Assembly: GCA_018969905.1 (NCBI GenBank)
Contig: JAGWXK010000003.1
Location: 1-57,610 of the forward strand
Reading direction: 5' to 3'
DNA from: Bdellovibrionales bacterium
GTDB taxonomy: Bacteria > Bdellovibrionota > UBA1018 > CAIMNF01
Length of the DNA stretch: 57,610 nt
Position 1 is the first letter of the stretch. Every line of letters starts with the position of its first letter. This document shows positions 13,280 to 30,159 of the stretch, in pieces. The translations under genes and the position numbers were made by a program. The notes under the pieces were generated by a model, which searched no databases, was not told the DNA's origin, and saw only the letters and a list, made by a program, of their open reading frames with translations.

Positions 13280-13338
13280 GTCCCTACCTTCGCAAACCCT
13301 ACCGACGAAATCAATTCAAACTGTGCGGGGATTGTGGC

Positions 13339-14331
13339 ATGCTCGGGGCGATGCTCACGGACGCATATGCTCGGAAATTCAGCTACTTGAGGTTGTCGAT
13401 CACCGAGAAGTGCAACTTCAGCTGCAAGTATTGTCTGCCCGAGGGGTACAAACCGTCGGCCCATGCCCCCGAACCGGAATTGAGTCTTTCCGAGATCCGA
13501 AATCTCCTGGCGGGCATTTCCCATGCCGGTTTTCGAAAAATCCGCATCACAGGCGGAGAGCCGACCTTGCGTCCGGACCTCCTGCAAATCATCGAGGCGG
13601 CTTCCGAAACCCCCGGGATTGAGATTCGCGCCCTCTCCACCAATGGCTGGAATCTCAGGTCGATTTCGAAAAAATTGAAACTCGCAGGTCTCACGCACTT
13701 GAACGTGAGTGTGGACAGCCTTGACCGGCAGCGGTTCTTGAAGCTCTGCGGACGCGATTCCCTTCACCTGGTTCTTGCGGGCATTGAGGAGGCTCTGGCC
13801 CTGCAGTTTGCGGGAGTGAAAATCAATGCGGTATTGCATCGTGATTCCGCCCAATCGGAGCTCGAACACTTCCTCGAGTATGTGAAATCAAGACCCCTCA
13901 CCGTGCGTTTCATTGAACTCATGCGAACCGGGGAGCGTGGCGAATATCGCGATCGGCATTTTTTGTCGGCAGGAGGGCTGAAACTTCACCTTCTTGCCCG
14001 CGGGTGGAAGCCACTCGAACGGGAACTCTCCTCGGGGCCTGCGCATGAGTTCTACCATCCGGACTTTTCCGGCCGAATCGGCCTGATTGCACCGCATTCG
14101 GATGGGTTTTGTGAATCCTGCAATCGTTTGCGGGTCACATCGCAAGGGAAGTTGAAGCTTTGCCTCTTTGGTGAGAAGGACGAATCCATCCGCCCCTTCC
14201 TGCAATCAAAGGAAGTTGCGCTCGGGTTGGACTTAAGGATTCAGCAGTTGCTCGTTCAAAAGCCCGGAGCCCATTTTCTCTCCGAGGGGCGAACCGGAGG
14301 AGCACGGAACTTTTCCGTGATGGGGGGCTGA
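13339..14331 (+). CDS. moaA: GTP 3',8-cyclase MoaA
   Basis: CNFSCKYC radical-SAM motif, FCESCNRLR...CLFG, C-terminal GG. Alternative start at 13351. Confidence 0.96.
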   Translation: MLGAMLTDAYARKFSYLRLSITEKCNFSCKYCLPEGYKPSAHAPEPELSLSEIRNLLAGISHAGFRKIRITGGEPTLRPDLLQIIEAASETPGIEIRALSTNGWNLRSISKKLKLAGLTHLNVSVDSLDRQRFLKLCGRDSLHLVLAGIEEALALQFAGVKINAVLHRDSAQSELEHFLEYVKSRPLTVRFIELMRTGERGEYRDRHFLSAGGLKLHLLARGWKPLERELSSGPAHEFYHPDFSGRIGLIAPHSDGFCESCNRLRVTSQGKLKLCLFGEKDESIRPFLQSKEVALGLDLRIQQLLVQKPGAHFLSEGRTGGARNFSVMGG

Positions 14332-14338
14332 TTCAAAC

Positions 14339-15607
14339 ATGAATTCACTCATCAAATATGAAGATGCGATCCGGATTCTTAGGGAGTCTGCAAGGACCCG
14401 GACCCTCAGAACAGAAAAAGTACCGCTTCTTGAATCTCAAAACCGGGTGGTTGCCTGCGACCTGAACGCTGAGGAGTGCATTCCCGTTTACGACAACTCC
14501 GCGATGGATGGCTTTGCGCTTCGTTCGGGCGAGGTGGTTTCGGGACAGAATCTTCTCAAGGTTTCGGAGCAAAGAATTGCAGGAGATCTGCCGGGAGCAC
14601 CTCCGGTGAACAGTGTCGCGGTCCAGGTCATGACCGGTGCCCCGATGCCAAACGGCGGGTTTGACCTTGTGATCAAGATCGAGGACGTTCTGAAAATCGC
14701 GGATCCTGCCGGCGGATATTCCATTCAATTTGACTCTCTCCGTGCCAGTGGGGGGTTCGTCCGGAAAAAGGGATCGGACTACAAGCCGGGCGATCTTCTG
14801 GTTGCGCGGGGCACGCGGATTGATCCGAAAATGATTCTGGCGCTTGCCGCCCTTGGAGTCTCACGGGTTCCTGTATGCAAAAAACCAAAAGTTGCATTGA
14901 TCTCGACGGGCAACGAGCTTGTTGCTTTTGATGAACCCAGGGTTCCGGAAGGAGCGATCCGAAACTCGACTGGTCCTTTTTTGCTCGAGACCCTTAAGGC
15001 CTATGGCTGCGAGGTCCGGAATTTTGGAATCATCGGGGATGAGACTTCGGATCATCCTGTTGAGTTTGATCTTGCGCTTCGCTCCGCACTTTCCGAGGAG
15101 TTTGACCTGATTCTCACCACAGGTGCGGTATCCATGGGCGTTCATGACTTTCTGAGGACCTCGGTGGAGAAGGGCGGGGGAAGAATCCTGTTTCACGGCG
15201 TTGCGATACGGCCTGGAAAACCGGTGCTTTTTGCCGATTTTCCCGATCATCCCCGCACAAGCCTGCTTGGTCTTCCGGGAAATCCCGTATCGAGTGTCGT
15301 GGGTGCGGATTTTTTTGTGGCCCCGTTTCTGCGTACGCTCTTCGGAATGAAGGAAGGAGTGCTCTTTCAAGGCACGCTCACGGGACCTGTGCCCGAAACT
15401 CCAAAGGGACTGAGGGCCTTTCTTCGGGCACGTGTCTTTGCCTTGCCGGATGGGGCTCGTGGAGTCGAGATTCTTCCGGGGCAGGGGTCCTTCATGATTC
15501 ACTCCCTGTCCCAGGCGAATGCATGGGCCGTGGTCCCCGAGGAAGGCGGAATCGGGGAGGGAGACAGGATCCGATTTCAAATGTTTTCAGAAAGGATTGA
15601 TCCATGA
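14339..15607 (+). CDS. moeA: Molybdopterin molybdotransferase MoeA
   Basis: SAMDGFA, STGNEL, TTGAVSMG, RPGKP and LPGNPVS motifs. Confidence 0.95.
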   Translation: MNSLIKYEDAIRILRESARTRTLRTEKVPLLESQNRVVACDLNAEECIPVYDNSAMDGFALRSGEVVSGQNLLKVSEQRIAGDLPGAPPVNSVAVQVMTGAPMPNGGFDLVIKIEDVLKIADPAGGYSIQFDSLRASGGFVRKKGSDYKPGDLLVARGTRIDPKMILALAALGVSRVPVCKKPKVALISTGNELVAFDEPRVPEGAIRNSTGPFLLETLKAYGCEVRNFGIIGDETSDHPVEFDLALRSALSEEFDLILTTGAVSMGVHDFLRTSVEKGGGRILFHGVAIRPGKPVLFADFPDHPRTSLLGLPGNPVSSVVGADFFVAPFLRTLFGMKEGVLFQGTLTGPVPETPKGLRAFLRARVFALPDGARGVEILPGQGSFMIHSLSQANAWAVVPEEGGIGEGDRIRFQMFSERIDP

Positions 15608-15885
15608 AGGTGGAAAGGCTCAGGCTCAGGGTTTTCGGAGTTCTCCGCAATTTTTCGGATGAGGATGGATTTTGGAATCTTGAACTGGAACACCCTGTGG
15701 AGATTGAAACCGGGGATGACTTAAAGGCGCTCATTGGCTCCTGCTATTCCTCCCGGAACCCCTCGTTTGATCCCGCGATTCTTGAGGAGTGCGCGCTTGC
15801 CGATGGTGAGTCCATTCTGGATCCCTCCGAAAAACTCGGCTCCTGCGACGGTCTTGCACTACTTCCCCCGGTGTGTGGAGGGTAA
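15604..15885 (+). CDS. moaD: Molybdopterin synthase sulfur carrier MoaD
   Basis: C-terminal LLPPVCGG; lies between moeA and moaE. Confidence 0.85.
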   Translation: MKVERLRLRVFGVLRNFSDEDGFWNLELEHPVEIETGDDLKALIGSCYSSRNPSFDPAILEECALADGESILDPSEKLGSCDGLALLPPVCGG

Positions 15886-15887
15886 AA

Positions 15888-16346
15888 ATGAATGCTTCGT
15901 TGAATCGGATCGAAATCGAAGTGAGTGATTCTCCCATCGGAGCGGATTCCATTTGCCTTCAGGAGTTCATCCGTCCCGACTGCGGAGCCTGTGATTTGTT
16001 TTTCGGGACAGTGCGGGGCCGGAATCACGGAAAAGACGTGGTAGCGGTGTCCTATGATGCGTTTGTTCCCCTGGCCCGCGCGGAGCTTCGGAGGATCGGC
16101 GAGGAGGCACTTGGGGCTGCAAACACGCAAGGAACAGTGGTGATCCGGCATCGGACCGGAAAACTCGCGGTGGGTGAACTCAGTGTCTTGATTGCAGTGT
16201 TCACTCCGCACCGGGCTCAGGCCTTTGAGGCCTGCCGGTTTGTGATTGAAGAGTTGAAAAAAAGGGCTCCGATCTGGAAAAAAGAGTTTTATCGGGATGG
16301 CGAGACAGAGTGGCTGAAGGGCCATTCCTTGTGTGGAGGCTTATGA
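15888..16346 (+). CDS. moaE: Molybdopterin synthase catalytic subunit MoaE
   Basis: FFGTVR, HRTGKL, PHRAQAF and PIWKKE motifs. Confidence 0.94.
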   Translation: MNASLNRIEIEVSDSPIGADSICLQEFIRPDCGACDLFFGTVRGRNHGKDVVAVSYDAFVPLARAELRRIGEEALGAANTQGTVVIRHRTGKLAVGELSVLIAVFTPHRAQAFEACRFVIEELKKRAPIWKKEFYRDGETEWLKGHSLCGGL

Positions 16347-17803
16347 GAACAACGGTTGTTTTTTTTCTGAACGGAAAACGTCATGAAGTGGGATCGGACC
16401 AGGCCTTTCAAACTGTTTCGGATTTTCTTCGCTACGAGCGGGGACTTACGGGCACAAAAGTTGTGTGCGCTGAGGGTGACTGTGGCGCCTGCACCGTGCT
16501 GGTGTCGCGTTTTCGAGCAGGGAAGCTTCAGCCCTATCAATCCATCAACTCCTGCATCGCATATGTGTATTCCTTGCATCGAACCCATCTGATCACGGTG
16601 GAAGGATTGAAGAGGGGGCAGGAACTGCATCCAGTACAGGCGGCAATGGTCGAGAGGCAGGGCTCGCAGTGTGGCTATTGCACTCCGGGATTTGTTTGTT
16701 CCATGGCGCTCCTTGCCGAGGATGCGAAACGGGAGGGATTTCGCCCTGATGAAAAGAAGGTTCGGAATTACACAACCGGGAATCTTTGCAGATGCACCGG
16801 CTACGCCCCGATTCTTGAGGCCGGAGTGGCGATGGATCTTGACCGTGTTCAGGCGCTATCGTCTTTTTACGGCGATGACCGCATCGAAGCCGAATTTTCT
16901 GCGATTCGCGTCGAGGGAATCCGGATTCGGGGCGAGGGAAAGGAGGTTTTCCTCCCGATTGACCTCACTGAGGCTGTCCAAGAACGCGCAAGTGATCCTA
17001 CCGTTCGTTTGTCTGCCGGAACCACGGATCTTGGCGTGGTGTCCAATAAGGGAAAATTGAAACTGACCCGCTTGCTTTCACTGCAGGAGGTGGAGAGCTT
17101 GCATCTCATCAAGAAAACCGGAAACCGCATCCGGGTCGGAGCAAGGGCAAGTCTGCATCAGCTGGAGCGGAGTCTTGCGGACGAGTTCCCGGAATTTTCA
17201 AGGATGCTCAGGATCTTCGCGTCACCCCAAATCAAGAACTCGGCGACCCTCGTGGGAAATCTGATGAATGCATCCCCGATCGCCGACACCATTCCGTTCT
17301 TACGGGTGGCGGAAGTCCTGGTCTTGATCGCCTCGCCTCAGGGAGAAAGAAGGGTGGGGATCAATGACTTTATTCTTCCGGGTTACAAGAAACTTGATCT
17401 TAGGTCCGATGAACTGGTGGTTGGCATTGAGATCCCGCTTTCGGATCATCGCTACAAGCTCTACAAGGTTTCCAACCGCAAGGACCTCGATATTTCCGCC
17501 GTGACTTTTGCCGCCCGATACCGATTGAAAGACGGAGCATTCGAGAGTTTCTCCCTGGCTCTCGGAGGTGTCGGGGCGAGCGTGCTTCGGATGGGCGGGA
17601 TCGAAGCACAGGTGCTCGGAAAGCCGCTTTCGCTCAATCTCTTCCGGGCCCTTGCCAATACGCTCCCCGGGGAAATCACCCCGATCACCGATGTGCGCGG
17701 ATCGGCCGGATACCGTCTGAGGGTGGCGCAAAATCTCCTACTGAAATTTCATGATGACCTTGCAGTGGAAGAGGGACTTGGCATCAACGAGGCCTCCCTA
17801 TGA
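16343..17803 (+). CDS. xdhA: Xanthine dehydrogenase small subunit (2Fe-2S/FAD)
   Basis: GTKVVCAEGDCGAC, QCGYCTPGF, NLCRCTGY and FASPQIKN; start overlaps the moaE stop. Confidence 0.95.
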   Translation: MRTTVVFFLNGKRHEVGSDQAFQTVSDFLRYERGLTGTKVVCAEGDCGACTVLVSRFRAGKLQPYQSINSCIAYVYSLHRTHLITVEGLKRGQELHPVQAAMVERQGSQCGYCTPGFVCSMALLAEDAKREGFRPDEKKVRNYTTGNLCRCTGYAPILEAGVAMDLDRVQALSSFYGDDRIEAEFSAIRVEGIRIRGEGKEVFLPIDLTEAVQERASDPTVRLSAGTTDLGVVSNKGKLKLTRLLSLQEVESLHLIKKTGNRIRVGARASLHQLERSLADEFPEFSRMLRIFASPQIKNSATLVGNLMNASPIADTIPFLRVAEVLVLIASPQGERRVGINDFILPGYKKLDLRSDELVVGIEIPLSDHRYKLYKVSNRKDLDISAVTFAARYRLKDGAFESFSLALGGVGASVLRMGGIEAQVLGKPLSLNLFRALANTLPGEITPITDVRGSAGYRLRVAQNLLLKFHDDLAVEEGLGINEASL

Positions 17804-20136
17804 GCATCGGCACAAACATACGGCATGATTCCTCGGTGACCCATGTGGCTGGCGAAAGCGTGTTCATTGATGATCGTCCCGAGGTTCGGGGTGAAGTCCA
17901 TGTGGGAGTGGTGGGGAGTCCCATTGCACGGGGAATCCTGAAATCGATCGATGCGCGTGAGGCACTCGCCCATCCGGATTGTCTTGGGGTGTTTACGGCC
18001 GCGGATTTTCATGCAAAGCATTGGGGCACGATCACCCACGATCAGCCCTTTCTGGTGGTGGACGCGATTTCCTACATGCAGGAGGCCGTGTGCATTGTGG
18101 CAAGTTCCAAACGGGGATCCGTTGAGGCGATCAAGAAACTGGTCAAAATCGAAGCTACCCCGTCCGAGGGTGTGTTCAGCATCGATGAGGCGAAAGCCAA
18201 GGGAGAGATCCTCTATCGGGCCGCAAGTCCATTCATCCAGGGGGATGTGGATGCGGCGCTGAAGTCCTCTCCTCATCGACTAAAGGGGATATTTCGTTGC
18301 GGAGGGCAGGAGCATTTTTATCTTGAGTCGCAGGCCGCGATCGCCTATCCGCTTGAGAACGGACAAATCGAGGTACACTCCTCATCCCAGCATCCAAGCG
18401 AAACGCAGCGTGTGGTCGCGGAAGCCCTTGGACTTTCCTTCCACCAGGTCGTGTGTGTGGTCAAACGCATGGGGGGAGGATTTGGCGGAAAGGAATCCCA
18501 GGGTGCTCCGATTGCAGCCTACGCGGCCCTTGTTGCCGATCGCCTGAGGCGTCCCGCACGAATCGTGCTGACCAAGGATCAGGACATGATGATCACCGGG
18601 AAGCGTCATCCATTTCAGAACGAGTATGAGGTGGGCTTTGACAATCAGGGGAGGCTGCTTGCCGTGAATGCGCTTCTGCAATCGGATGGTGGGGCGTATC
18701 TTGATCTTTCCTCATCGATTCTTGAGCGGGCGATGTTTCACCTGGATGGTGCGTACCACCTTCCGAACGTCAGGGTCGAGGGGATTTGCTATCGAACCCA
18801 TCACCATCCCCATACTGCCTTCCGTGGATTCGGCGGGCCGCAGGGAAACATGACCATCGAAAGCATTCTTGAGGATGTGGCACATTACTTAAAGAAAGAC
18901 GCAAGCGAGGTCCGACGAATCAATTTATACTCGGGAGCAAATCTCAAGACTCCCTACGGCCAGGTTCTGGAGAACAACCTTTTGCCACGGATTCATGAAC
19001 GACTGCTCCTGAGTTCCGGATACGAGAAAAGACTCGGGGAAATCAGGGAATTCAATTCACGCCGGTGCGGCAAGGTTCGAGGAATATCACTTACCGCCAC
19101 GAAGTTCGGGATCTCCTTTACCGCCCGGTTTTTGAATCAGGCAAATGCTTTGGTGAATCTTCAGCTTGATGGAACGCTTCAGGTAAGCACTGGGGCCACT
19201 GAGATGGGGCAGGGAGTGAACACGAAAATCCAGCAGATCGTGGCCCATGCCTTCGGCGTATGTCCGGATGCGGTCCGGGTAATGCCGACGTCAACCGAAA
19301 AAAATCACAATACCTCGCCCACTGCGGCCTCCAGTGGATCTGACTTGAATGGTGCAGCAGCTCTTCTTGCATGCGATCGGATCAAGGCGCGACTCATTCC
19401 TCTTGCTCGGGCCAGATTTCAGGGACAGGAGTTTGATCCGACCCGCGAGTTCGAGAGCCCGGAAAGCCTGACTCCGAGTCCGGATCCTGACATGGTTTTT
19501 TCAGAAGGAGTTGTGCGCGATCAGCGAAGCGGGAAGTCGGTTCCTTTGCGGGAGTTGATCCATTTGGCCTATCAGAATCGGATTTCCCTTGGTTCGTATG
19601 CGCACTACAAAACGCCGGATCTTGGTTTCGACAAAACTCGGGTCGTGGGGCGTGCATTCAATTATTTCACCCAAGGAATGGCCGTCTCGGAGGTCGAAGT
19701 GGACGAATATACGGGTGAAATGAAGGTGCGGCGTGCAGACATCCTCATGGATCTTGGTCGCTCACTGAATCCCGGGATTGACCGCGGCCAGACGACCGGA
19801 GCGTTCATTCAAGGAATGGGATGGGTGACCTCGGAACACCTGGTCTATGACCGCGACCGGAATCTCCTCACCCATTCTCCGACCACGTATAAGATTCCAA
19901 ATGTCCAGGACACCCCACGGGAATTCAATGTGGAGTTCATCGAAAATCCGGACAATGATCGGAACGTGCACGGGTCAAAAGCTGTGGGTGAGCCCCCGTT
20001 CTTGCTTGGCACGAGTGTATGGACCGCAATCAAGCATGCCTTGTCGTTCCGTGCAAATGGACAGGAGATCCGTCTTGTTTCGCCTGCGACGTCAGAGGTG
20101 ATCCTGATGGAGTTGACTCGCTTAAAGGGAGAGTGA
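17800..20136 (+). CDS. xdhB: Xanthine dehydrogenase molybdopterin subunit
   Basis: GGQEHFYLE, RMGGGFGGKE, AFRGFGGPQG, SPTAAS and KAVGEPP motifs. Confidence 0.97.
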   Translation: MSIGTNIRHDSSVTHVAGESVFIDDRPEVRGEVHVGVVGSPIARGILKSIDAREALAHPDCLGVFTAADFHAKHWGTITHDQPFLVVDAISYMQEAVCIVASSKRGSVEAIKKLVKIEATPSEGVFSIDEAKAKGEILYRAASPFIQGDVDAALKSSPHRLKGIFRCGGQEHFYLESQAAIAYPLENGQIEVHSSSQHPSETQRVVAEALGLSFHQVVCVVKRMGGGFGGKESQGAPIAAYAALVADRLRRPARIVLTKDQDMMITGKRHPFQNEYEVGFDNQGRLLAVNALLQSDGGAYLDLSSSILERAMFHLDGAYHLPNVRVEGICYRTHHHPHTAFRGFGGPQGNMTIESILEDVAHYLKKDASEVRRINLYSGANLKTPYGQVLENNLLPRIHERLLLSSGYEKRLGEIREFNSRRCGKVRGISLTATKFGISFTARFLNQANALVNLQLDGTLQVSTGATEMGQGVNTKIQQIVAHAFGVCPDAVRVMPTSTEKNHNTSPTAASSGSDLNGAAALLACDRIKARLIPLARARFQGQEFDPTREFESPESLTPSPDPDMVFSEGVVRDQRSGKSVPLRELIHLAYQNRISLGSYAHYKTPDLGFDKTRVVGRAFNYFTQGMAVSEVEVDEYTGEMKVRRADILMDLGRSLNPGIDRGQTTGAFIQGMGWVTSEHLVYDRDRNLLTHSPTTYKIPNVQDTPREFNVEFIENPDNDRNVHGSKAVGEPPFLLGTSVWTAIKHALSFRANGQEIRLVSPATSEVILMELTRLKGE

Positions 20137-20138
20137 CC

Positions 20139-20981
20139 ATGCCAAGTTTTGAGACTTTCTGTGAGAGGTTTCTTGAGCTGAAAAGAGCCGGGACACCGAT
20201 GGTGGTGGTGACGCTTACGGGAGAGAGGGGACACGTTCCGCAGGATCTTGGAGCCCGCATGGTGGTGGGTGATGATGGCATCCTGTTTGGAACCATTGGC
20301 GGAGGAAAGATCGAAAAACGATGCATTGAGCAGGCGCAGGAGTATCTTTCCGCAAAAGACGGTCCCACGAAATACAGCTTTACCTGGAACCTTCAGCGTG
20401 ACATCGGAATGAGCTGTGGAGGGGAGCTCAGTGTGCTTTTTGAGGTGTTCTCTGGAAATCGTGAGTGGCGGATCGCACTCTTTGGTGCAGGCCACATTGT
20501 GCAGGAACTTGCGCCCTTGCTCTTGAAGCTGGAGTGTCGTCTCCAGGTCTTTGATCCGAGGATCGAGTGGTTGTCCAGGATTTCCGATCACCCACGTCTT
20601 GAAAAACGATTGACTCCGGACATGGTACCGATGATCGATGAACTCTCGCCCGATTGTTTTGTCGGGATCATCACCATGGGGCATGCGACCGACTATCCAC
20701 TCGTGAAGCGCGCCCTTGAGACAAGGACCTTTCCCTATCTGGGTGTCATCGGCAGCAAGGTGAAACGGATCAAAATCAACTCCGATCTCCTTGCTGCCGG
20801 AATCCCGGGTGCCAGGGTCGATAGTTTTCACTGTCCGATGGGAGAGGATTACGGAAAGAACGATCCGGCTGAAATCGCAATCTCGATTGCATCTCAAATG
20901 CTTTCCATCAGGCGTGATCTTGGTCTTCAGGAATCCCGTACAGGTGGAGGCGGTTCATCCCTCCGTCAGGATGAACGGTGA
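20139..20981 (+). CDS. xdhC: Xanthine dehydrogenase accessory protein XdhC
   Basis: GTIGGG, IGMSCGG, LFGAGH, YLGVIGS and PAEIAISI; overlaps the 3' end of the convergent fusion gene. Confidence 0.93.
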   Translation: MPSFETFCERFLELKRAGTPMVVVTLTGERGHVPQDLGARMVVGDDGILFGTIGGGKIEKRCIEQAQEYLSAKDGPTKYSFTWNLQRDIGMSCGGELSVLFEVFSGNREWRIALFGAGHIVQELAPLLLKLECRLQVFDPRIEWLSRISDHPRLEKRLTPDMVPMIDELSPDCFVGIITMGHATDYPLVKRALETRTFPYLGVIGSKVKRIKINSDLLAAGIPGARVDSFHCPMGEDYGKNDPAEIAISIASQMLSIRRDLGLQESRTGGGGSSLRQDER

Positions 20982-23900
20982 GTTTGACTTCGGTGAGGAC
21001 GTCCTTGAGGTCCATCTCCCGAACAAACCGGTTTCCCGCATAAGGCTTTACGAGTGTTTTTGGCATGATTTGCTTCCAAACCCCTTGCGAGAGCCCATGC
21101 AATTCCACTTCGCGCGGGTTGTTGTTACGGAAAAAAGTGAAGTCCATTTCAACGCGGGTGATTCTTCCGGGTTTGGCCAGACGCAGGTGAACCGATTCAG
21201 TGTGCCCCGGAGTCCTGCTTCTGGCCGACTCAAGCCCGTCAAACATGTGGATGGGAGCAAAAGGTGAAATCATGCGCGCGGCCGGCCCATAGTGCTCGTT
21301 TGATGCAGAAATGATTTTTGCGCCGAAGGCCTCGCAAGCAAGGTCGATCGGCAGACATTCGGATATCCGACCCCAGTTGCGGGCGAGTTTTGCCTGGTCC
21401 AGATGGTAGTCCGGAGCAAGGGGTTTTTGAGGTTGCGGAATCGGCATCGGATCGCGCACACACTCGGCAGTGTTGACCTCGCGATAGAACCTTTTTTCTT
21501 CGGCCGGGAGAAGATCATCAAACAGGGCAAGGCGGGTCAAGCCCCCGTCAGGCGACATCTTGACCTTGATGGCCGAAATCAGCAGCGACGAGTTTGCGGA
21601 GATGATTCGTTTTTCAGAGTGCCCTTCCATCGAGGTTTTCGGAAGAAGCGTGATCCATGCGTCTCCACCTGCTTTTTTCCCTAGAATTTCAACAAGTGGC
21701 GCCTGGTTGCCAAGATGGTATCGGGTGGAGATCCGAAGATAGTGAACATAAGAGGGTTTTTTCAACTCAAGGATCAGTCGGTCCGAGTCTTTCGGGTTGT
21801 GACGGGCGCTCTCCCAACTGTCCATCACCTTTCCCTGCCTTCCATAGAGACCGGGATCAAACACCGGCTCATGCAGGGAGATCAGGTTTTCAGCGCGCGC
21901 AAATCGCTGGTTTGAAACGCTGATGATTCTCGCGTCGGCCAGAAGATTGTATTTTGAAAGCGGATCGAGCGGTCCTTTGGGATGGATTTCCTCGGGGAGG
22001 TCCGGAAGAAAAGCCTTGAAGACAAGGTTTTTATAGCCAAGATTGACGATCTCCTCGATGGGCATTCCGGCGGAATCGAGGTTTGCCTGGAATTCGCTTT
22101 CATCAACACCCTTGATTTTCAGTTCCTTGAGAATCTCTTGTGCGGCTTCCGCGCAAAACAAAACGCCATTGTCATCCGCGTTGCAAAGGATCACCATCCC
22201 CTTGCCCCGGTCCGGCCCACGAAAACAATGAAGCGAAAGGCACCGAAAACCGTCATTTGCGCCCTGGTGAATCGCAAACCGGTTTTCAAGAGCTTCACCG
22301 ATGAACACTCCGATTCCGGCATTCACTCCCATGAATTCCTGGCTCGAACTGTCGGTATCCTCGAGCATTCGGACAGCTGTTTCATGGGAAACCGCCACAT
22401 CTCCTTGATACCGATGAAATCCTGATTCCAAAATATCCAAAAACCGGTGATAGCTTCGCGCGGTGCCCAGGCCCCCGGCTGCGCAGGCAGGGAAGTTCAG
22501 CCGCCCTCCCGGGATCTCATCCCCGTTTTTCCGGTACCCCTTTGCATACACGAAACCTTCCTGATCGAGGGATTGAAAGCTCAGTTCCGGAAGTCCGAGG
22601 CTTTGGAAAAAAGGGGCTGCGATCGCCGCGATCGGCTTTCCTTCGAGGGATTCAAGAAGGTGTTCAAGGACAAGAAAACCGCCTCCGGAATACTTGAAGC
22701 CTGATCCTGGTTGAAAGAGAGCCCCGGTTTCCTCGTACCCGTACCTTGAGGGATCCCGTAAGATGGAAAGCACACCCGGCATGGGTTTTTCTGCAGGAAA
22801 TCCCCTCACATAGTGCTGGTTTAAGGCATTGTGTTTCATCAGGTTCAGAATTCTGACCTGATCGCCCCAGGCAGGATGCGAGATGTCCAATGATCTGATC
22901 TGATAGGGGGAGCGAAATTTTTTCAAAAGTGGATTCACAGGGGTTTCGAGAGAAATCGCCTTTGAACGGAAGATTTCGAGCGATAGGGCGGAGGCAAGGG
23001 TTTTGCTGAGTGATGCAAGCTCAAAGCGGGTTTCGGGCTCCACACGCGGGCCTCCCTTGAACGCGTGACCAAGGCAAATATCCTGAAAAACCCGTTCACC
23101 CGCACTGATCGAGATCTGGACTCCGGTGACTTCATGCTTGATCCGGAGGGCCTCGATCCGTTCAAGCAGGCTTGCCGAACCAAGAGGCACAAGGCGTTTG
23201 GCACTGATCCGCCATAGTTCAAGCCGCGCATTCTGGAGCTCTACCTCTTCTGTGTTGTGCAGGCGTTCATTTAGTTTGGTGAGAATCTCTGATCCCGACT
23301 TTCCCTGGGCTGATACAAGAAACTTCATTCCAAAACGCTTGAGATACTCTTGTCCCCCTGCAAGGAGCTCTCGCCTAAGCTCTTCCTGCCCCAGAAGCAC
23401 CCCTGCTTGCTCGGATGCAGCAAGTTCATCAAGGGTCCTCTTGTTTTCTCCGATGTCACCGTGAAACGACGCCGCATCCAGAATGTCATTCTTGGTGAAT
23501 TCCATGACAATCCTCTCGGCTAGCTCCAGGTCAGGTGAGAGGAGATTTGAGAGAGGGAGTGCGAACTTCATGCTGCCACAGACCGAAAAGTAATGGTTCA
23601 GTCGCTCGATCCTCGGGGAGAGATTGTATTTTCCGGGTTCAAGACCCATTAGTGTTTCAAGGGGTTCGGGCGAGTTTCGAACAGATTCAATCGTGAAAGG
23701 AAGAAGCAGCTCTGATGCGAACTCTACCGGTTCAGGATCGGTCATCAACTTCAGCATCAATTTGAGTGCGATCGGATACCACTTTGCTGTTCTTTCATCC
23801 CATTTCACCTGGACGATCTTTTTTCCGTCGGACAGATCCTTCCTGATGAAACGCATCTCTTCGTGTGCAATTCGTACAAAGTCTTCGATCTTGACGCGCC

Positions 23901-25650
23901 CATGGTGGATTTCATGCCACACCTCCCATCGGGAACGCTCTGCAGTGGCAAGATCATCCATTACGCGGACAGGAACCCCTTTGAGCTGTGCGGGCAATGC
24001 CACACACCCATTTCCCGAAAGCCAGTCGGTAAGGTACTGAAGCGACTGGAACACGTTGTAGCGGACTTCCTCTTGGTCGTGGTTTGCGATGAAGGTCGAT
24101 TCCTTGAGATCAGCCACAATCAGGGAGCGGGGGTAAAGAGGGTCATCGATCCTGAGTCCCTCGATGTCAGACCCCTGGATGAATGAAAGAATTTCCTCGT
24201 GATGTTCCGGAAGCAATAGCGAGCACACAAGTTCGTCCAACAACTGGGGCGAGGAATCTCTCAGTTTCCATGCCTGAACGAGCGCCATTCCCAGCCGCAC
24301 AAAGTCCGGATGCGCCACCCAGAAGCCGCTCAAGTTGCGCTTGAGCTGGGTCACCACATCCTTGATGTAGCCCTTGATGGTGAGTTGAAAGGAGGGACTT
24401 GTGAGTTCGTTTTCGATTGGCAAAACCCCGTACATTCCGCCGATCTTGATTCCACCCCGTGATCCGACCACCTCGGAGAGCAGATCATGGGATGCTTTGA
24501 TGTATTTGATGACAATGTCCGGATCGGCTTTTACCGGAATCCTGTAATTCGCGTCATTCTTGAATAAACGGGCAGTGGATGCCAGGTAGTCGTGCCAGCC
24601 GAGCGAGGCCCCTGCAAAATACGGGTGGAGGGCATCCATGATCTCATTGACCCTGAAAATGGCTCGTGGGTTTTCAAGAACGACAAACAATCGAATCGAA
24701 CCCGGTTCATAGGTGGGGTGTTCTTTTCGGAGAAGATCCTCCGCGGTTTCGATCATCAGTCTGATGTACGCCGCCTCTTCCTCGTTTTCGAGTTTCGGCA
24801 CGTAGTAGCAGAGTGCAGGTTCACGGTTCCAATGCGTGTAGAGGTGCAAAGCGAAGTCGTACAGGTGCAGAGGAAGGGGATTTCCCTCAAACAAAAGGAA
24901 GGGAGCGGGAAGGGCAAGGCCTGGAAACCGTTTGATCGGAAGCGAGAGACGGGTGGATTCAAGTTGGTATGATTTTCCTGTTTTCTCGTCCTGAAAACGG
25001 AGGGTCCCCTCAAAGCAGCCTTTCAGGTTTTGTCCGGCAGAAATCAGATCCTGTCTGAGCGGGGTTTTCGAGTCCTCATCATCCGCGCCCCAGAAAGGGG
25101 CATCCTCGCAGGTTTCAAGGATGCCAGAAACAATTGTAGGCTCGTCCCTGATCCTTCGGTGAAATGCGTTCATTGCATTAATAGAGAGTTTCGGATCATC
25201 AGGTGGTCCGAAGAGAGTGACATGAGTGCCCTTTAGGAAGGTGGGGAGATTGGCAATCGGATCACCGTAGCCCTTTTTGCAGTAGAAAGGATTTTTCGGT
25301 CCGATGACGATTCGACCCTCGCCGTCCTCATGGCCGAGTACACTTTCATAGTCTTGATCCCGAAGATCGATCTTCAAGGATTGATTGAGTTCGTAACAGG
25401 ATTTCGTGCGCTCATCCAGGAACTTGCGGTCGATTTTCCTTTGCTCCAGCACCCGGTTCAGGGGCTCTTTTAGGATCTGATAGAGTTCACACAGAAAACG
25501 GAACGACTCTCTGTTTTCGAGGCCACCCGAGGGACCCAATTGTCTGAGCCCGGGAACGCCCTCAACCGGTAGACTTTCCTTTTTTAGGTGCTCAAGGAGG
25601 GCCGGTGAGAGGTAGTCGTGGTAGTAAGGAATGTCCGTTTTTTCCATCAT
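20908..25650 (-). CDS. Multidomain fusion: malate synthase + OHCU decarboxylase + beta-lactamase-like serine hydrolase + allantoicase
   Basis: Malate synthase motifs (ADDEDS, YYVPKLE, GFWVAHPDFV, WLSGNGCV, MDDLATAERSR) at ~23620-25650. OHCU decarboxylase (FHGDIG, SEQAG, YLKRFGMKFLV) at ~23190-23600. SxxK/YSG/HQG serine hydrolase at ~22100-23170. Two allantoicase repeats (DSWESAR, DGLESAR, PDGG) at ~20930-21950. Start probably ATG 25650, right after the uraH stop. Confidence 0.88.
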   Translation of the reverse strand: MMEKTDIPYYHDYLSPALLEHLKKESLPVEGVPGLRQLGPSGGLENRESFRFLCELYQILKEPLNRVLEQRKIDRKFLDERTKSCYELNQSLKIDLRDQDYESVLGHEDGEGRIVIGPKNPFYCKKGYGDPIANLPTFLKGTHVTLFGPPDDPKLSINAMNAFHRRIRDEPTIVSGILETCEDAPFWGADDEDSKTPLRQDLISAGQNLKGCFEGTLRFQDEKTGKSYQLESTRLSLPIKRFPGLALPAPFLLFEGNPLPLHLYDFALHLYTHWNREPALCYYVPKLENEEEAAYIRLMIETAEDLLRKEHPTYEPGSIRLFVVLENPRAIFRVNEIMDALHPYFAGASLGWHDYLASTARLFKNDANYRIPVKADPDIVIKYIKASHDLLSEVVGSRGGIKIGGMYGVLPIENELTSPSFQLTIKGYIKDVVTQLKRNLSGFWVAHPDFVRLGMALVQAWKLRDSSPQLLDELVCSLLLPEHHEEILSFIQGSDIEGLRIDDPLYPRSLIVADLKESTFIANHDQEEVRYNVFQSLQYLTDWLSGNGCVALPAQLKGVPVRVMDDLATAERSRWEVWHEIHHGRVKIEDFVRIAHEEMRFIRKDLSDGKKIVQVKWDERTAKWYPIALKLMLKLMTDPEPVEFASELLLPFTIESVRNSPEPLETLMGLEPGKYNLSPRIERLNHYFSVCGSMKFALPLSNLLSPDLELAERIVMEFTKNDILDAASFHGDIGENKRTLDELAASEQAGVLLGQEELRRELLAGGQEYLKRFGMKFLVSAQGKSGSEILTKLNERLHNTEEVELQNARLELWRISAKRLVPLGSASLLERIEALRIKHEVTGVQISISAGERVFQDICLGHAFKGGPRVEPETRFELASLSKTLASALSLEIFRSKAISLETPVNPLLKKFRSPYQIRSLDISHPAWGDQVRILNLMKHNALNQHYVRGFPAEKPMPGVLSILRDPSRYGYEETGALFQPGSGFKYSGGGFLVLEHLLESLEGKPIAAIAAPFFQSLGLPELSFQSLDQEGFVYAKGYRKNGDEIPGGRLNFPACAAGGLGTARSYHRFLDILESGFHRYQGDVAVSHETAVRMLEDTDSSSQEFMGVNAGIGVFIGEALENRFAIHQGANDGFRCLSLHCFRGPDRGKGMVILCNADDNGVLFCAEAAQEILKELKIKGVDESEFQANLDSAGMPIEEIVNLGYKNLVFKAFLPDLPEEIHPKGPLDPLSKYNLLADARIISVSNQRFARAENLISLHEPVFDPGLYGRQGKVMDSWESARHNPKDSDRLILELKKPSYVHYLRISTRYHLGNQAPLVEILGKKAGGDAWITLLPKTSMEGHSEKRIISANSSLLISAIKVKMSPDGGLTRLALFDDLLPAEEKRFYREVNTAECVRDPMPIPQPQKPLAPDYHLDQAKLARNWGRISECLPIDLACEAFGAKIISASNEHYGPAARMISPFAPIHMFDGLESARSRTPGHTESVHLRLAKPGRITRVEMDFTFFRNNNPREVELHGLSQGVWKQIMPKTLVKPYAGNRFVREMDLKDVLTEVKLTVHPDGGMNRLHLYGIPEDQDHA

Positions 25651-25651
25651 T

Positions 25652-25984
25652 TCATGATCCGCGATAGGTGGAATACCCAAATGGGTTTAAGAGGAGGGGA
25701 ACGTGGTACTTTCGGCCCGTGTTTGAAATTTTGAAGATCACGGGCGCAGTGAGAAAGAAGAAATCGCTTTGAGTCTCTTCAAGATACTCCGAAATTTGAA
25801 AGGTCAATCGATAGGTACCCGCAAGCTTTTCGCAATCAAAGGAGTGTCGTCCATCCGCGTTGGTGCGGCCGCGCGCGATTTCGGAAAATTCCGACGATGA
25901 TCCATTCTTTGCGATCTCGAGCACAACCTCGATGCCCTCTGCGGGCATTCCTTTGCTGGTGTCCAGTACGTGCGTGCTGATCAT
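25652..25984 (-). CDS. uraH: 5-hydroxyisourate hydrolase (transthyretin-like)
   Basis: ISTHVLD, TNADGR, YHVPLLL and C-terminal YRGS. Confidence 0.96.
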   Translation of the reverse strand: MISTHVLDTSKGMPAEGIEVVLEIAKNGSSSEFSEIARGRTNADGRHSFDCEKLAGTYRLTFQISEYLEETQSDFFFLTAPVIFKISNTGRKYHVPLLLNPFGYSTYRGS

Positions 25985-25990
25985 GCGTTC

Positions 25991-27607
25991 CTACTTTCCA
26001 TAACTGAAATCGAGTTCAAGGGTTTGATCTGCTTTTACTGTCACTTCCTGTTTCAGGGATCCGAAAACCTCATGCCAGGCCTCCAGTGTGTAAGTCCCGA
26101 CCGGCACGTTCGAAATGGTGAACTCACCTGAGGTTCCGGTTACCTGAAAATACGGATGATCGAGGACCGCAATCGAGGCACTCATCCACGGGTGGACGCT
26201 GCACTTGGATTCGATGAAAATCTCAGGTTTTTGAAACACCTTCGTCATCTTGTCGTTTTTCAAAGGCATCGCCACGTTGAAGTTTTCGTTTTCCTTACTC
26301 AGTGATTTCACGTTGTGGAAGATCGGATCGCTGTTTAGAAAATCCACAGGCTGCCCGACGCGAACGGCAAGAAGTCTTGGCTCGTACTGACATTCCTTTT
26401 GATCGAGCACCGCGTGCGTTTTCGGGGGAGCGCCGAAGTCCCTTGGTTTAAGGCCACGAGTGATGGACACAAGCACGTTCGCGACCTTGCCTTCGGATAC
26501 CAGGATGTCGTTTGACAAAACTTCGGGCTTTCCGCTCGGATTGCAGCCTCCGGGCACCGACAGGGTCTCACGAGCGGGAGGGGTGCCGCGGTAAAGCGCT
26601 CGCCCGCGAAGGGTGCCATGAGGACCCACATCCACTGGCGCGGATTCTTCCGCCTTCGAATTCACTGCGGGTTCTGGAGTCGCGGGGATTTCCTGGGAAA
26701 GGTTCTCGCGGGTAAGGATCATCACGGCAAGAATGATCGTCGCACCCAAGACTCCGAACCGACGCGAGCGCATGGGGTTCGAGAGCCGGACCACGAAGAA
26801 TTCTCGGATCGCCGCTCCCGCTGCGCTGATCGCAATTAGGATCTGCCAGTTGTAGGCATTGCCATAGGTGTTCGGGAAGTGGTTGGAGAGCATGATGAAA
26901 ATGACCGGAAGAGTAAAGTAGGTGTTGTGGGTGGAGCGATTCTTTGCGTTCTTTGCCCATTCCTGATTCACAGGTTCGCCGCGTTTTGAGGCTTCCACCA
27001 TTTTCACCTGGCGGGGGATGATCCGAAGGAAGACGTTTGCGGTCATCCATGTGCCGAGCATTCCTCCGATGTGGATATAGGCCGCCCGCCCGCTCAGGGT
27101 GTGACACAAAAGATAAACCATTCCTCCAAACCAAAGAAGAGTGATCGTGTGTCCGGCAAGCGGGTTCTTTTTTGTAAAATTTGATTCCCAAAGAGTGTCA
27201 TAAAAAACCCAGGATCCGATCAGGGAGCCTAGGCTCAGCAGGATCGCCTCTACAAAGCTGATCTTCGATACGCTTGAATCCAAAAGGAAGGTACCGGAGC
27301 CCGAGTAGAAAATGAGTGCGAGCAAAAAGATTCCGCTCATCCAAGTCCAATAGGATTCCCATTTGAACCAATGAAGTTCCTTTGGGACGGGAGTCGGACC
27401 CATGAGAAGTTTCTCGACATGATAAAATCCGCCTCCGTGGACCATCCAGAGGTCCCCGATGTGGCCCGGGTTTTTGGATTCCGGGTTTTTGACAAAACTC
27501 CGGTCAAGCCACATGAAAAAAATGGAGGTCCCAATCCAGGTGATTCCCACCATGATGTGCAGCCAGCGTCCTAGGAGTTGCAGCCATTCGAAGATTTCTT
27601 GATTCAC
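25991..27607 (-). CDS. puuD: PuuD-type membrane urate oxidase/hydroxylase with a C-terminal cupredoxin-like domain
   Basis: RWLHIMVGITWIGTS, WMVHGGGFY, LHWFKWESY, RSTHNTYFTLPV and MLSNH. The C-terminus has HNV...CSVHPWM and no CxxCH. Start probably GTG 27607, after an AAGGGG SD. Confidence 0.88.
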   Translation of the reverse strand: MNQEIFEWLQLLGRWLHIMVGITWIGTSIFFMWLDRSFVKNPESKNPGHIGDLWMVHGGGFYHVEKLLMGPTPVPKELHWFKWESYWTWMSGIFLLALIFYSGSGTFLLDSSVSKISFVEAILLSLGSLIGSWVFYDTLWESNFTKKNPLAGHTITLLWFGGMVYLLCHTLSGRAAYIHIGGMLGTWMTANVFLRIIPRQVKMVEASKRGEPVNQEWAKNAKNRSTHNTYFTLPVIFIMLSNHFPNTYGNAYNWQILIAISAAGAAIREFFVVRLSNPMRSRRFGVLGATIILAVMILTRENLSQEIPATPEPAVNSKAEESAPVDVGPHGTLRGRALYRGTPPARETLSVPGGCNPSGKPEVLSNDILVSEGKVANVLVSITRGLKPRDFGAPPKTHAVLDQKECQYEPRLLAVRVGQPVDFLNSDPIFHNVKSLSKENENFNVAMPLKNDKMTKVFQKPEIFIESKCSVHPWMSASIAVLDHPYFQVTGTSGEFTISNVPVGTYTLEAWHEVFGSLKQEVTVKADQTLELDFSYGK

Positions 27608-27742
27608 CGGTTTCGGACCCCTTTTTCCGAGGTCCGAGCTTAACGCATTTTCTGGGTAAATCGATCTTTTTTGTGGAGCCTTTCCTCTTCTGAAATGATT
27701 TTCATTCACCGGTCGGAAAAGATCCCTCCGTAAAGGCACCGG

Positions 27743-28768
27743 TTAGCGTTTTGTTGGCCGGTTTCTCGAGGCTCCAATGTGTTTACGGGACTCCTCTTTT
27801 GCATATCGTTTTGAGACGATCTTAAAAATGGAGTCCTTTTTGTGGATTCGCTTCAAATAATCGGCCGCGTCCTTGGGTGATCCCTCTCCCTCTTGATCCG
27901 CAAGGGATTCTGCTTCGCCCTCCGACTCATCAGAGGCAGGATTCTGTTCCGCGCCATTTAGAGAACCTGATCTTGAGTCAGAATCGGCAGAGTTCGAAGA
28001 CAAATTCCCTCCCGAACCAGAGGCGCCCTCGCTTCTGCCGCTGCCATATTCAATGACCTCCACATTTTGTCCTGAAACAACCTCAGACGGACCCACTGAG
28101 GTGGGAGCCTCGGTCCTGCCAGAGCCAAGCGAGGCATACTTCCCAGTGGAAAACGCAAAATCCTCTGTGGACGAGCCAGTTCCTCTTTTCTTGATTTTTT
28201 TTCCAGATGATCCTCCATCGAGGCCACCGATTCCCATCCCACTTGGGCCGGAGGAAGAAAATAAACCTCCCAATCCCGTCGAGGACTGCCCCGATGAAAG
28301 ATTTTGGGTGGGCGAAGCTCCGGTGAGTGCGTTTCTACCACCCGGGATCGGAATCTGGCCTCCCGATAGGAGGGCAGAGCTTTCAGCGCTGATCGTGCCG
28401 CTTGATGAGGATGGTGATTCTCCTGGATCTGGTGAGCCCTCGGGTGCGGCGTTGAGGTCGCTTGTGGCGCCTGTCAGAGTGATCGCATCATCAATGAGTT
28501 GATACGCGCCATCCAGCACATTTTCGGTCTCCACGAGGGTATCTGGAAGAATCGAGAAAAATCCCGAGTTGCAGACGGGCTCATTTGCGCCGTTTCCGTA
28601 ACAACACTTGGTTGCAAGAACCGAGTGTCTCGGAATGGGAATTCCATCTCCAACGATGCAAGCGTAATCCATGTGGACTTTGAAATCTCCGGCACGTGCA
28701 GGTTCTATCGAGAATCCAAATACGAAAAGAAAGATCATGATAAATGAATCGGCATTTCGTTTTACCAT
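27743..28768 (-). CDS. Secreted Gly/Ser-rich hypothetical protein
   Basis: Signal peptide, small Cys-containing N-domain, long low-complexity G/S region, C-terminal SIFKIVSKRY. Confidence 0.7.
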   Translation of the reverse strand: MVKRNADSFIMIFLFVFGFSIEPARAGDFKVHMDYACIVGDGIPIPRHSVLATKCCYGNGANEPVCNSGFFSILPDTLVETENVLDGAYQLIDDAITLTGATSDLNAAPEGSPDPGESPSSSSGTISAESSALLSGGQIPIPGGRNALTGASPTQNLSSGQSSTGLGGLFSSSGPSGMGIGGLDGGSSGKKIKKRGTGSSTEDFAFSTGKYASLGSGRTEAPTSVGPSEVVSGQNVEVIEYGSGRSEGASGSGGNLSSNSADSDSRSGSLNGAEQNPASDESEGEAESLADQEGEGSPKDAADYLKRIHKKDSIFKIVSKRYAKEESRKHIGASRNRPTKR

Positions 28769-30159
28769 GTATAGTTCACCCCATTGTTTGGTATGTTTGG
28801 AATGAGTGTTTCATCACATCGTGGACTTGGATCTCCCGGGCGAGTTTGTTTGCAGATATCATAGCGAATCACCTTTTCAATGATTGCCGGAATTCCACTG
28901 GAGAGGGTAAGGATTTGGGGTTGCCCGCCGATAAAGGGGGGAGAAATTCGTGAGTAAGAGGGGTAATTGAATGGAAGTCGAGCGCTCACGGGGTTCACCG
29001 AAGGATTCAGCCTGAATCCAAAAAATTGTCGTCCTACTCGAGGCTTAGATGGTGATTGATTCGTTGGCTCCCCCCACCACGAGCCTTTTGGGACTTTCCA
29101 GGAGCCATCGCCCATTACAGCCGAGATTACTTCCGCTGCGCATTTTCGACGACCTTTCAGATCTAGAATGCAATCCCAAAACGAAGTGTCATCGGTGGCT
29201 TGTTTGACTAAGGCGGACCATAAAACACTTCTGTCTGATAAAAGAAAAGTATCCCCAAAGTGTTGTTGAAATGAAGCCTTTGCTTTACTCATAATCTGAA
29301 ACTCAATCATCCCAGAGATAGAAGCTTCGTTCAAAAGCATGGATGCTTTTGCAAGGGTGCATAGACGGAGCGCCGGATCCGTAAGAGCAAATGGAGAAAA
29401 CCCGGGTCTTTCCAGACAGCGATCTACAAGATTGGAGTAGGTATTATCACTGCAAATTGCCTTTGATTCAGGAGGAAGTGAGTTTAAGAATTGTTCAGAC
29501 TTCAGTTGGATTTCCGAAAATCGAGCTTTTGAATCCTGCAGATTTGAGTCCGTGATCGCAGCATCGAGGTCTGCGGGTTTCGAAACCGTTTGAAAAAAAT
29601 CATAAGCCTGTGAGCGGATCTCGTAGGGCATCGCACCCAGCATCCATGAGGCGATCGAGCTCCCACTGTTGCCTTCGAGCTTTAGATAGATTTCTCGACT
29701 GCCAATGTTGATTTCTACCTTAGGAAGGCTTCCACAGACCTGTGCGTTCGTGTAATTCGTTTTTCCATCATTGGCTACGGTTGTGCCCATGTCCCGATAC
29801 CGAAAAGCGAGATCACGGGTACCCTGGTATCGAATGGTTCTCCCCACTACGCTGCAAACCGGATAGGGCATGGGACTCCCCACAGGAGAGGATGCTGTGG
29901 TTTTATTTAAATCCAGATCCCAGCCTTTGTGATAGCCGTAAATCTTTAGGCTCAAGGATTCCAGTGCTTTTGATTTGTATTTTTCATGAACTTCCGAACA
30001 TTTTGGCAGAAGGTTCCTGCACGAGTTTTCAAGTGTGCCACCAGAAATCGATCCGTCATCATTGACACACTTTATGGTAAGTGAAGCGCTTAGGCAGGGT
30101 GTTGTGGAAAAGAGGAGCAGAGCCCATGTGAAAAAGATTTTTTTTCCTTCTTGAATCAA
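28762..30159 (-). CDS. Secreted Cys-rich hypothetical protein
   Basis: 465-aa ORF with signal peptide and many Cys; GAAGG SD; overlaps the next gene, suggesting an operon. Confidence 0.72.
   Translation of the reverse strand: MIQEGKKIFFTWALLLFSTTPCLSASLTIKCVNDDGSISGGTLENSCRNLLPKCSEVHEKYKSKALESLSLKIYGYHKGWDLDLNKTTASSPVGSPMPYPVCSVVGRTIRYQGTRDLAFRYRDMGTTVANDGKTNYTNAQVCGSLPKVEINIGSREIYLKLEGNSGSSIASWMLGAMPYEIRSQAYDFFQTVSKPADLDAAITDSNLQDSKARFSEIQLKSEQFLNSLPPESKAICSDNTYSNLVDRCLERPGFSPFALTDPALRLCTLAKASMLLNEASISGMIEFQIMSKAKASFQQHFGDTFLLSDRSVLWSALVKQATDDTSFWDCILDLKGRRKCAAEVISAVMGDGSWKVPKGSWWGEPTNQSPSKPRVGRQFFGFRLNPSVNPVSARLPFNYPSYSRISPPFIGGQPQILTLSSGIPAIIEKVIRYDICKQTRPGDPSPRCDETLIPNIPNNGVNYTW

Follow-up and report, generated by a model that had tools for sequence, protein, structure and literature searches.

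The gene considered here, a form of puuD, lies on the reverse strand of a 57,610-nucleotide stretch of DNA from a Bdellovibrionales bacterium (assembly GCA_018969905.1, contig JAGWXK010000003.1, positions 1 to 57,610), which as a whole is called the window below. PuuD was defined by Doniselli et al. (2015, PMC4562309) as a DUF989 membrane domain joined to a cytochrome c domain with a CXXCH motif and a distal Met, and the motif is stated there to be strictly conserved in all PuuD sequences. The window's gene (25991..27607, minus strand, 538 codons plus stop) encodes a protein of three parts, the PuuD membrane domain, a disordered linker and a 213-residue beta module, and it is this module, a cupredoxin by its fold and its ligand residues, that stands at the position of the cytochrome c of other PuuDs.

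The gene and its cupredoxin module

The open frame runs from 25991 to 27739 on the minus strand (582 open codons), and an upstream in-frame GTG at 27739 would give a product of 582 amino acids. That codon is probably not the start used. The GTG at 27607 is the start in the database gene calls (P0002, 538 amino acids), the 120 homologues compared all begin at its position, and 92% of the 582-residue frame is covered by homologues. Residues are numbered here in the 582-residue frame unless the 538-residue protein is named; His475 of the former is His431 of the latter.

The membrane domain (26714..27595, minus strand) matches Urate_ox_N, also known as DUF989 (PF06181, COG3748), at residues 49-342 with an E value of 1.3e-105, 353.5 bits against a cut-off of 26.9, and over profile positions 3-293 of 295. 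Eight transmembrane helices are predicted, and in the AlphaFold2 model of the 538-residue protein they occupy residues 3-36, 83-102, 118-141, 149-170, 173-208, 215-241, 253-273 and 278-298, so both ends of the protein should lie on one side of the membrane. Lys and Arg are concentrated on alternate loops (37-82, 142-148, about 195-225 and about 270-285), and acidic residues prevail in the linker; this pattern matches the topology proposed for PuuD (PMC4562309) and suggests that both termini are outside. No known fold was recognized for the membrane domain, as Foldseek and VIA-align searches with the 538-residue model matched only the C-terminal module, and a profile search of the sequences in the Protein Data Bank (PDB) gave no match for residues 1-300. 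NCBIfam holds no PuuD model that matches the protein, the only hits being weak ones to S-layer and amicyanin models. A second PF06181 match in the genome, weak and partial (G000:C149:3552-3899 in locus L002, E 5.4e-9, profile positions 168-276, within a 265-residue frame), may correspond to the short four-helix DUF989 type of which Doniselli et al. make mention (PMC4562309).

Between the membrane domain and the module lies a flexible Pro/Glu/Ala-rich linker (26621..26713, minus strand), as judged by reading the sequence; it has two Lys or Arg residues against six Asp or Glu, and pLDDT is below 50 at residues 302-323 of the 538-residue model. There is no CxxCH anywhere in the 538 residues, the four Cys of the protein all lying outside such a motif.

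The module itself (25994..26620, minus strand) was modeled by AlphaFold2 from 100 aligned module sequences, with pLDDT 96.2 and pTM 0.92. With residues 380-582 as the query, phmmer ranked the type-1 copper protein 5fc9 first among PDB sequences (E 1.7e-4) and amicyanins next, and a profile of 38 full-length relatives raised the same proteins to 2.4e-7 for 5fc9 and 1.8e-6 and weaker for the amicyanins. Foldseek found 83 PDB matches at E ≤0.001, headed by the cupredoxin domain of NirK, 5fc9, amicyanins (about 1e-5), plastocyanins and pseudoazurins. VIA-align, run against 48,161 representative chains, placed cupredoxins on module residues 71-157 (26162..26422, minus strand) at Z 11.5-12.6 and rmsd 1.6-2.2 Å, good examples being plastocyanin 1b3i (Z 12.0, rmsd 1.6, 85 residues), amicyanin 1aac (Z 11.5, rmsd 2.0, 86 residues) and 5fc9 (Z 11.9). 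The same program aligned 78 residues of carboxypeptidase D domain II (Z 10.9, rmsd 2.1), spread over module residues 7-213. As the cupredoxin matches are confined to residues 71-157 while those to transthyretin-like domains span 7 to 213, the cupredoxin is inserted in a transthyretin-like (CarboxypepD_reg) beta sandwich after its first strand. That strand, module residues 5-14 in the model, is encoded at 26591..26620 and the C-terminal strands of the sandwich, with an invariant W-H-E that includes His556, at 26006..26179 (both minus strand). Pfam detects CarboxypepD_reg (PF13620) across residues 521-578, at 39 bits against a cut-off of 32.3. Judged by fold and ligands the module is a cupredoxin, one that stands outside the curated families PF00127 and TIGR02657. 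No second copy of it was found in this genome.

The predicted copper ligands are His475, encoded at 26315..26317 and followed by an invariant Asn, and Cys513, His516 and Met519 of a C-S-V-H-P-W-M stretch encoded at 26183..26203 (both minus strand). In the phmmer alignment 'dpifHNv' falls on 'eampHNv' of amicyanin and 'kCsvHpwM' on 'hCtpHpfM', with all ligands in register. Across the query and its 120 best full-length homologues (58-100% identity) there is no variation at His475, Asn476, Cys513, His516, Pro517, Trp518, Met519, Cys399, Cys450 or His556, and CxxCH occurs in none of the 121. A more distant comparison was made with 99 stand-alone module proteins at 35-46% identity, chosen from the 150 best representative matches by a length of 170-300 residues and the presence of CxxHxxM. 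Here all 100 sequences, query included, have the four ligands, Cys450 and His556, and at least 90% have Cys399; the invariance of the Cys, His and Met of the selection motif is partly by construction, that of the first His and of the other residues is not. From these residues and the model the module is predicted to bind copper. Cys399 (26543..26545) and Cys450 (26390..26392, both minus strand) may be partners in a disulfide, and two conserved extra Cys fit an extracytoplasmic module.

Most of this architecture had been described in an earlier note made from the letters of the window alone, which reported a conserved PuuD membrane domain, the lack of CxxCH, a Pro/Glu linker and a beta domain of about 210 residues with the His...Cys-x2-His-x2-Met spacing of amicyanin-like type-1 sites, embedded in a carboxypeptidase-regulatory-like sandwich. 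The Pfam match, the motif search over the entire protein, the disordered linker of the model, the alignment with amicyanin and the VIA-align matches to both folds all agree with it, and its positions for the His codon and for C-S-V-H-P-W-M are exact. The structure prediction that it had called for is the model given above, with its cupredoxin fold matches.

Copper and haem forms of PuuD

A word-indexed protein search returned 5372 proteins at E ≤1e-5 among 8000 candidates scored, and all 120 matches listed have the copper-type architecture. About 30 of the 120 bear the JGI automatic name 'uncharacterized membrane protein/plastocyanin', and six, from Bdellovibrio, Bacteriovoracaceae and one Xanthomonadaceae metagenome-assembled genome (MAG), the NCBI name 'urate hydroxylase PuuD'. 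The 80 best PuuD loci in species-representative genomes, a set that is not neutral in that the copper motif was one of the two search patterns, comprise 67 with CxxCH, 11 of copper type and two that are broken or cut. The 11 come from Bdellovibrionota, one Lysobacteraceae MAG and one Acidobacteria MAG. The CxxCH of the 67 is at about residue 320-383, the CxxHxxM of the 11 at about 456-486.

A more neutral sample is provided by 301 genomes of the window's own phylum, to judge by the nearest named relatives probably Bdellovibrionota; 61 of the 301 have PuuD at E ≤1e-30. Forms were assigned from open-frame lengths, the module search and the reading of 22 loci, most of the copper forms being recognized by a module match on the same contig and in the same open frame. 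By this count 38 of the 61 genomes have a copper-fused PuuD (one of them, G270, has a cytochrome c copy as well), 13 have the cytochrome c form only, seven have PuuD with no fused carrier and in three the gene is cut by contig ends. The copper form is therefore the majority form of PuuD in this phylum, and not an oddity of one genome. Together with its many relatives it is an exception to the stated invariance of CXXCH. The carrier-less proteins (L091 of G066, L092 of G133, and L094, L101, L102, L103 and L104) are of about 296-305 residues, the open frames being 353 and 417 residues in L094 and L102; in the last five of these loci a long open frame begins a few bases from the PuuD stop. The short DUF989 forms dealt with in the text of PMC4562309 are of the four-helix kind, and no full-length carrier-less ones are described there.

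The history of the two carriers was approached with a quick maximum-likelihood tree built from the membrane domains of 24 copper and 67 haem forms (91 in all), with L014 and L018 left out as their frames are broken or cut. The window's protein belongs to a clade that consists of 13 copper forms and is well supported. The tree needs four changes of carrier type, at least two of which are forced by well-supported branches. An approximately unbiased (AU) test did not reject a single split (p 0.07), and for this reason repeated swaps are not claimed. The survey of PuuD C-terminal domains that the earlier note had wished for yields copper, cytochrome c and carrier-less forms. Its proposal of a heme-to-copper swap stands insofar as a cupredoxin is found at the position of the cytochrome c of other PuuDs; by the tree and the AU test the exchange may have gone from haem to copper or the reverse, and once or several times. 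Loss of cytochrome c maturation was entertained as the cause of the swap and ruled out, for the genome has a cytochrome c assembly gene (Cytochrom_C_asm) and a caa3-type cytochrome oxidase subunit II (COX2) with CIACH (L084). As the genome can make c-type cytochromes, its copper carrier is no stopgap for a lost ability to mature haem c. Beside the caa3-type COX2 is a putative gene for an SCO1-type copper chaperone, so judged by a Y-Y-E-C-P-M-L-C stretch.

Genomic context of puuD and of the module

Six bases downstream of puuD is the gene for the next enzyme of the pathway, 5-hydroxyisourate (HIU) hydrolase (25652..25984, minus strand; Pfam Transthyretin/HIUase, E 2.6e-31). It is followed by a gene for a 1590-residue fusion (20908..25680, minus strand) in which Pfam distinguishes malate-synthase-like, 2-oxo-4-hydroxy-4-carboxy-5-ureidoimidazoline (OHCU) decarboxylase, beta-lactamase-like and allantoicase parts, the first being a TIM barrel and the allantoicase part consisting of two repeats. 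The fusion looks like a purine-catabolism mega-enzyme, and one might guess that its beta-lactamase-like part stands in for allantoinase. Fusions of this type also follow puuD and the HIU hydrolase gene in L004, L005, L006 and L012, and in L013 and L015 separate genes, including DUF6986 and an amidohydrolase, are in its place. HIU hydrolase, OHCU decarboxylase and allantoicase adjoin the copper-form gene in all six of these other loci scanned.

Xanthine dehydrogenase-type genes, for an Fe-S/FAD subunit and a molybdopterin subunit, are recognized by Pfam at 16310..20136 on the plus strand and would be the source of urate. They end a purine and molybdenum block (8826-20136) that starts with a xanthine/uracil-type permease and includes a molybdenum cofactor synthesis cluster, its further genes being a ThiF/MoeB-like one, one for a MOT1-type molybdate transporter, and MoaC-MogA, MoaA and MoeA; the block lies upstream of the puuD operon, on the opposite strand and facing it. 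The two genes directly upstream of puuD (27743-30159, minus strand; 341 and 465 residues) have signal-peptide-like N-termini and Ser/Gly-rich low-complexity stretches, and no Pfam match was obtained for either. No match to uricase was found in the genome, which is estimated to be 97% complete. With HIU hydrolase, OHCU decarboxylase and allantoicase as neighbors and no uricase match, a role in the purine pathway is retained for the copper-form protein, which on its domain and its neighbors is a predicted urate oxidase.

The module is far from restricted to PuuD. A HMMER search with its 213 residues against 1.84 billion representative proteins gave 12,997 matches at E ≤0.001, 768 of them with E ≤1e-30. 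Among the best 150 matches, 109 are proteins of at most 340 residues whose N-terminus is signal- or lipoprotein-like (53 of the 109 match a crude lipobox pattern), 18 are PuuD fusions or fragments by pattern and two more are such by Pfam (P0246, P0254), six lack the motif and the remainder are longer. P0201, among the longer ones, is fused to COX2. A search with P0201 listed, among 120 matches, 70 proteins of at least 450 residues, 65 of which have CxxHxxM before residue 300 and 52 of which also have a strict CuA pattern. The module comes after the CuA site in P0350, P0351 and P0359, while in P0360 the motif is at residue 458 and the CuA pattern is unmatched. C-terminal placement on COX2 is the place that a cytochrome c domain holds in this genome's own subunit II. 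In the set of COX2-module proteins as a whole (P0201, P0279-P0345, P0350, P0351, P0359 and P0360) the module is N-terminal, and C-terminal in a few; several are from Candidatus Omnitrophica MAGs and are annotated merely as 'cytochrome c oxidase subunit II'. Other contexts were also seen. In P0123, P0224, P0248, P0231 and P0196 the module follows an N-terminal region that resembles anti-sigma factors, with a zf-HC2-like start, and P0123, P0127 and P0146 have two copies of the sandwich or of the module.

Where the module is encoded alone, its gene directly adjoins a UbiA-family gene in seven of seven loci fetched from the phylum sample, and COX15/CtaA in six of the seven, with SCO1/SenC further on in one. 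Pfam assigns the first neighbor to the UbiA family only, and its context suggests that it is haem O synthase, CtaB. The COX2 fusions and the neighboring genes for haem A synthesis suggest that electrons from urate are relayed singly to an A-type oxidase. An electron-relay mechanism was what the earlier note had drawn from the domain alone, and these two associations strengthen it.

Proposed route of the electrons and related systems

The reading in which we have good confidence is that the window's protein is a functional PuuD-family urate oxidase in which a type-1 copper cupredoxin, and not a c-type cytochrome, is the periplasmic one-electron carrier that passes electrons to an A-type oxidase. 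Urate made in the cytoplasm by the neighboring xanthine dehydrogenase would be converted to 5-hydroxyisourate on the eight-helix membrane domain, at the cytoplasmic face. Its two electrons would cross the membrane domain singly to a copper centre held on the flexible linker in the periplasm, and from there would go to a haem-copper oxidase of A type (aa3 or caa3), so no H2O2 would be made. What the analysis establishes is the architecture, the fold, the conservation of the ligands, the gene context, the distribution and the association of the module with oxidase genes, whereas copper binding, the placing of both termini outside, the direction in which electrons flow and their acceptor are inferred.

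Several points weigh against this. PuuD lacks a fused module in seven of the 61 genomes, so a fused carrier is not obligatory, and in two of the seven, G066 and G133, no module match is present anywhere at E ≤1e-15. The seven stand-alone loci with haem A synthesis neighbors do not count as independent, all of them belonging to two related families. The relevant Pfam and NCBIfam models both missed the module, PF00127 (Copper-bind) scoring 13.7 bits where 21.2 is needed and the amicyanin model TIGR02657 18.1 where 110.2 is needed. Azide did not specifically inhibit PuuD activity in the 2015 study (PMC4562309, Discussion), so that even the haem form has no proven link to a terminal oxidase.

The azide result and the seven genomes with no fused module both lend something to the view that the copper module is a protective accessory, scavenging superoxide or other reactive species from urate oxidation, and not an obligatory relay; such a role was raised by Doniselli et al. 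for the cytochrome c domain. Against it are the respiratory context that is evident from fusion of the module to oxidase subunit II and from its linkage to haem A synthesis genes, and the finding that five of the seven genomes with carrier-less PuuD encode a stand-alone module elsewhere. Type-1 sites with the full His/Cys/His/Met set are, moreover, coordinatively saturated electron-transfer centres, which also counts against protection, and we consider this role unlikely.

Reverse flow is less likely again. Here the cupredoxin would be the donor, and the membrane domain, supplied by it with electrons, would hydroxylate urate with O2 in the manner of a monooxygenase, as the NCBI family name 'urate hydroxylase PuuD' might imply, and the fold and PDB profile searches matched no solved structure to the membrane domain that would speak to its chemistry. 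The conversion of urate to 5-hydroxyisourate is, however, a net two-electron oxidation, and no reductase gene is linked in the window or in the other loci scanned. In addition, the strain with wild-type PuuD had no induction of catalase, which its authors read as oxidation without H2O2 (PMC4562309, abstract).

It is similarly improbable that the module is redox-inactive, a structural or docking domain, copper chaperone or copper sensor that has kept the cupredoxin fold. The sub-threshold scores of the Pfam and NCBIfam cupredoxin models would allow this, and cupredoxin-fold copper chaperones such as CupA are among the fold matches at a lower Z (9.5), but the four type-1 ligands and the Asn after the first His are invariant over 121 and 100 sequences, down to 35% identity, and the module holds the exact place of cytochrome c in both the PuuD and the COX2 fusions. 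That the protein is not a urate oxidase at all, its DUF989 domain having another role in this lineage, is hardly credible: although the activity of the copper form is judged from sequence and a second PF06181 match, weak and partial, lies on C149, the full-length match at 1.3e-105, the HIU hydrolase gene immediately downstream, the remaining purine pathway in the window and in six of six other copper-form loci, and the lack of a uricase match in a nearly complete genome all speak for urate. For the PuuD of A. fabrum, a knock-out is reported to have lost growth on urate and to have regained it with a soluble uricase.

Beyond the copper form of PuuD as an oxidase-linked urate oxidase, a wider and more tentative proposal, plausible though we do not lean towards it firmly, is that the module is a widespread class of tethered blue-copper carrier that serves A-type haem-copper oxidases as dedicated donor, in place of cytochrome c, being encoded alone beside haem A synthesis genes, attached to either end of COX2, or attached to donors such as PuuD. 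If so, Bdellovibrio-like predators that live on the nucleic acids of their prey would have, in copper PuuD, an energy-conserving urate:O2 branch that couples urate oxidation directly to respiration.

The carrier swap bears directly on how PuuD oxidizes urate. The 2015 paper, which argued from an 'invariant' haem c, left undecided whether the cytochrome c of PuuD relays electrons or only scavenges reactive oxygen (PMC4562309). The copper form contradicts that invariance yet backs the relay argument in a better form, as what is conserved would be a one-electron carrier and not haem chemistry; type-1 copper has no chemical kinship with haem c, and one-electron transfer is all that the two have in common. 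There are practical consequences also. A blue chromophore can be followed optically and its expression does not call for cytochrome c maturation, so copper PuuD is the more tractable form. Annotation stands to gain, since Pfam detects merely a 'carboxypeptidase regulatory-like' domain in the module, and a large family with no described function, 12,997 representatives in the search above, is exposed that is probably at work in aerobic respiratory chains. In literature searches neither a copper-type PuuD nor the module was found described; the sole paper in which 'puuD' and 'cupredoxin' occur together deals with the puuD gene of putrescine metabolism. The copper form is widespread and half-recognized by automatic annotation, with no description in the literature searched.

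Exchange of haem and copper carriers is in itself familiar from plastocyanin and cytochrome c6. The PuuD of 2015 (PMC4562309) has in common with the copper form the eight-helix DUF989/Urate_ox_N domain, a periplasmic one-electron carrier after the last helix and a gene cluster with HIU hydrolase and OHCU decarboxylase; it differs in that its carrier is a haem c domain of about 75 residues and not a 213-residue copper module devoid of CXXCH. Amicyanin, plastocyanin, pseudoazurin and Nmar_1307 (5fc9) share the Greek-key fold of the module (Z 11-12, rmsd 1.6-2.2, 82-86 residues), and in amicyanin the His-Asn ... Cys-x2-His-x2-Met residues align one for one. These single-domain type-1 cupredoxins have 19-28% identity to the module in the VIA-align rows and are free-standing, whereas the module is inserted in a transthyretin-like sandwich, is tethered to a membrane enzyme and has two extra conserved Cys. 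Closer are the stand-alone 'plastocyanin' lipoproteins (about 230-290 residues), with 35-46% identity over the whole of a 205-residue module and the same invariant residues; they have a signal or lipoprotein anchor in place of the PuuD membrane domain, and CtaA and CtaB, not purine genes, as neighbors. In the caa3-type COX2 with its fused cytochrome c, as in this genome, a one-electron carrier is likewise fused to its redox partner, and the module's own relatives are fused to COX2 in the same way. The difference is that in PuuD the carrier is copper, and that it is attached to the enzyme that donates the electrons rather than to the oxidase that receives them.

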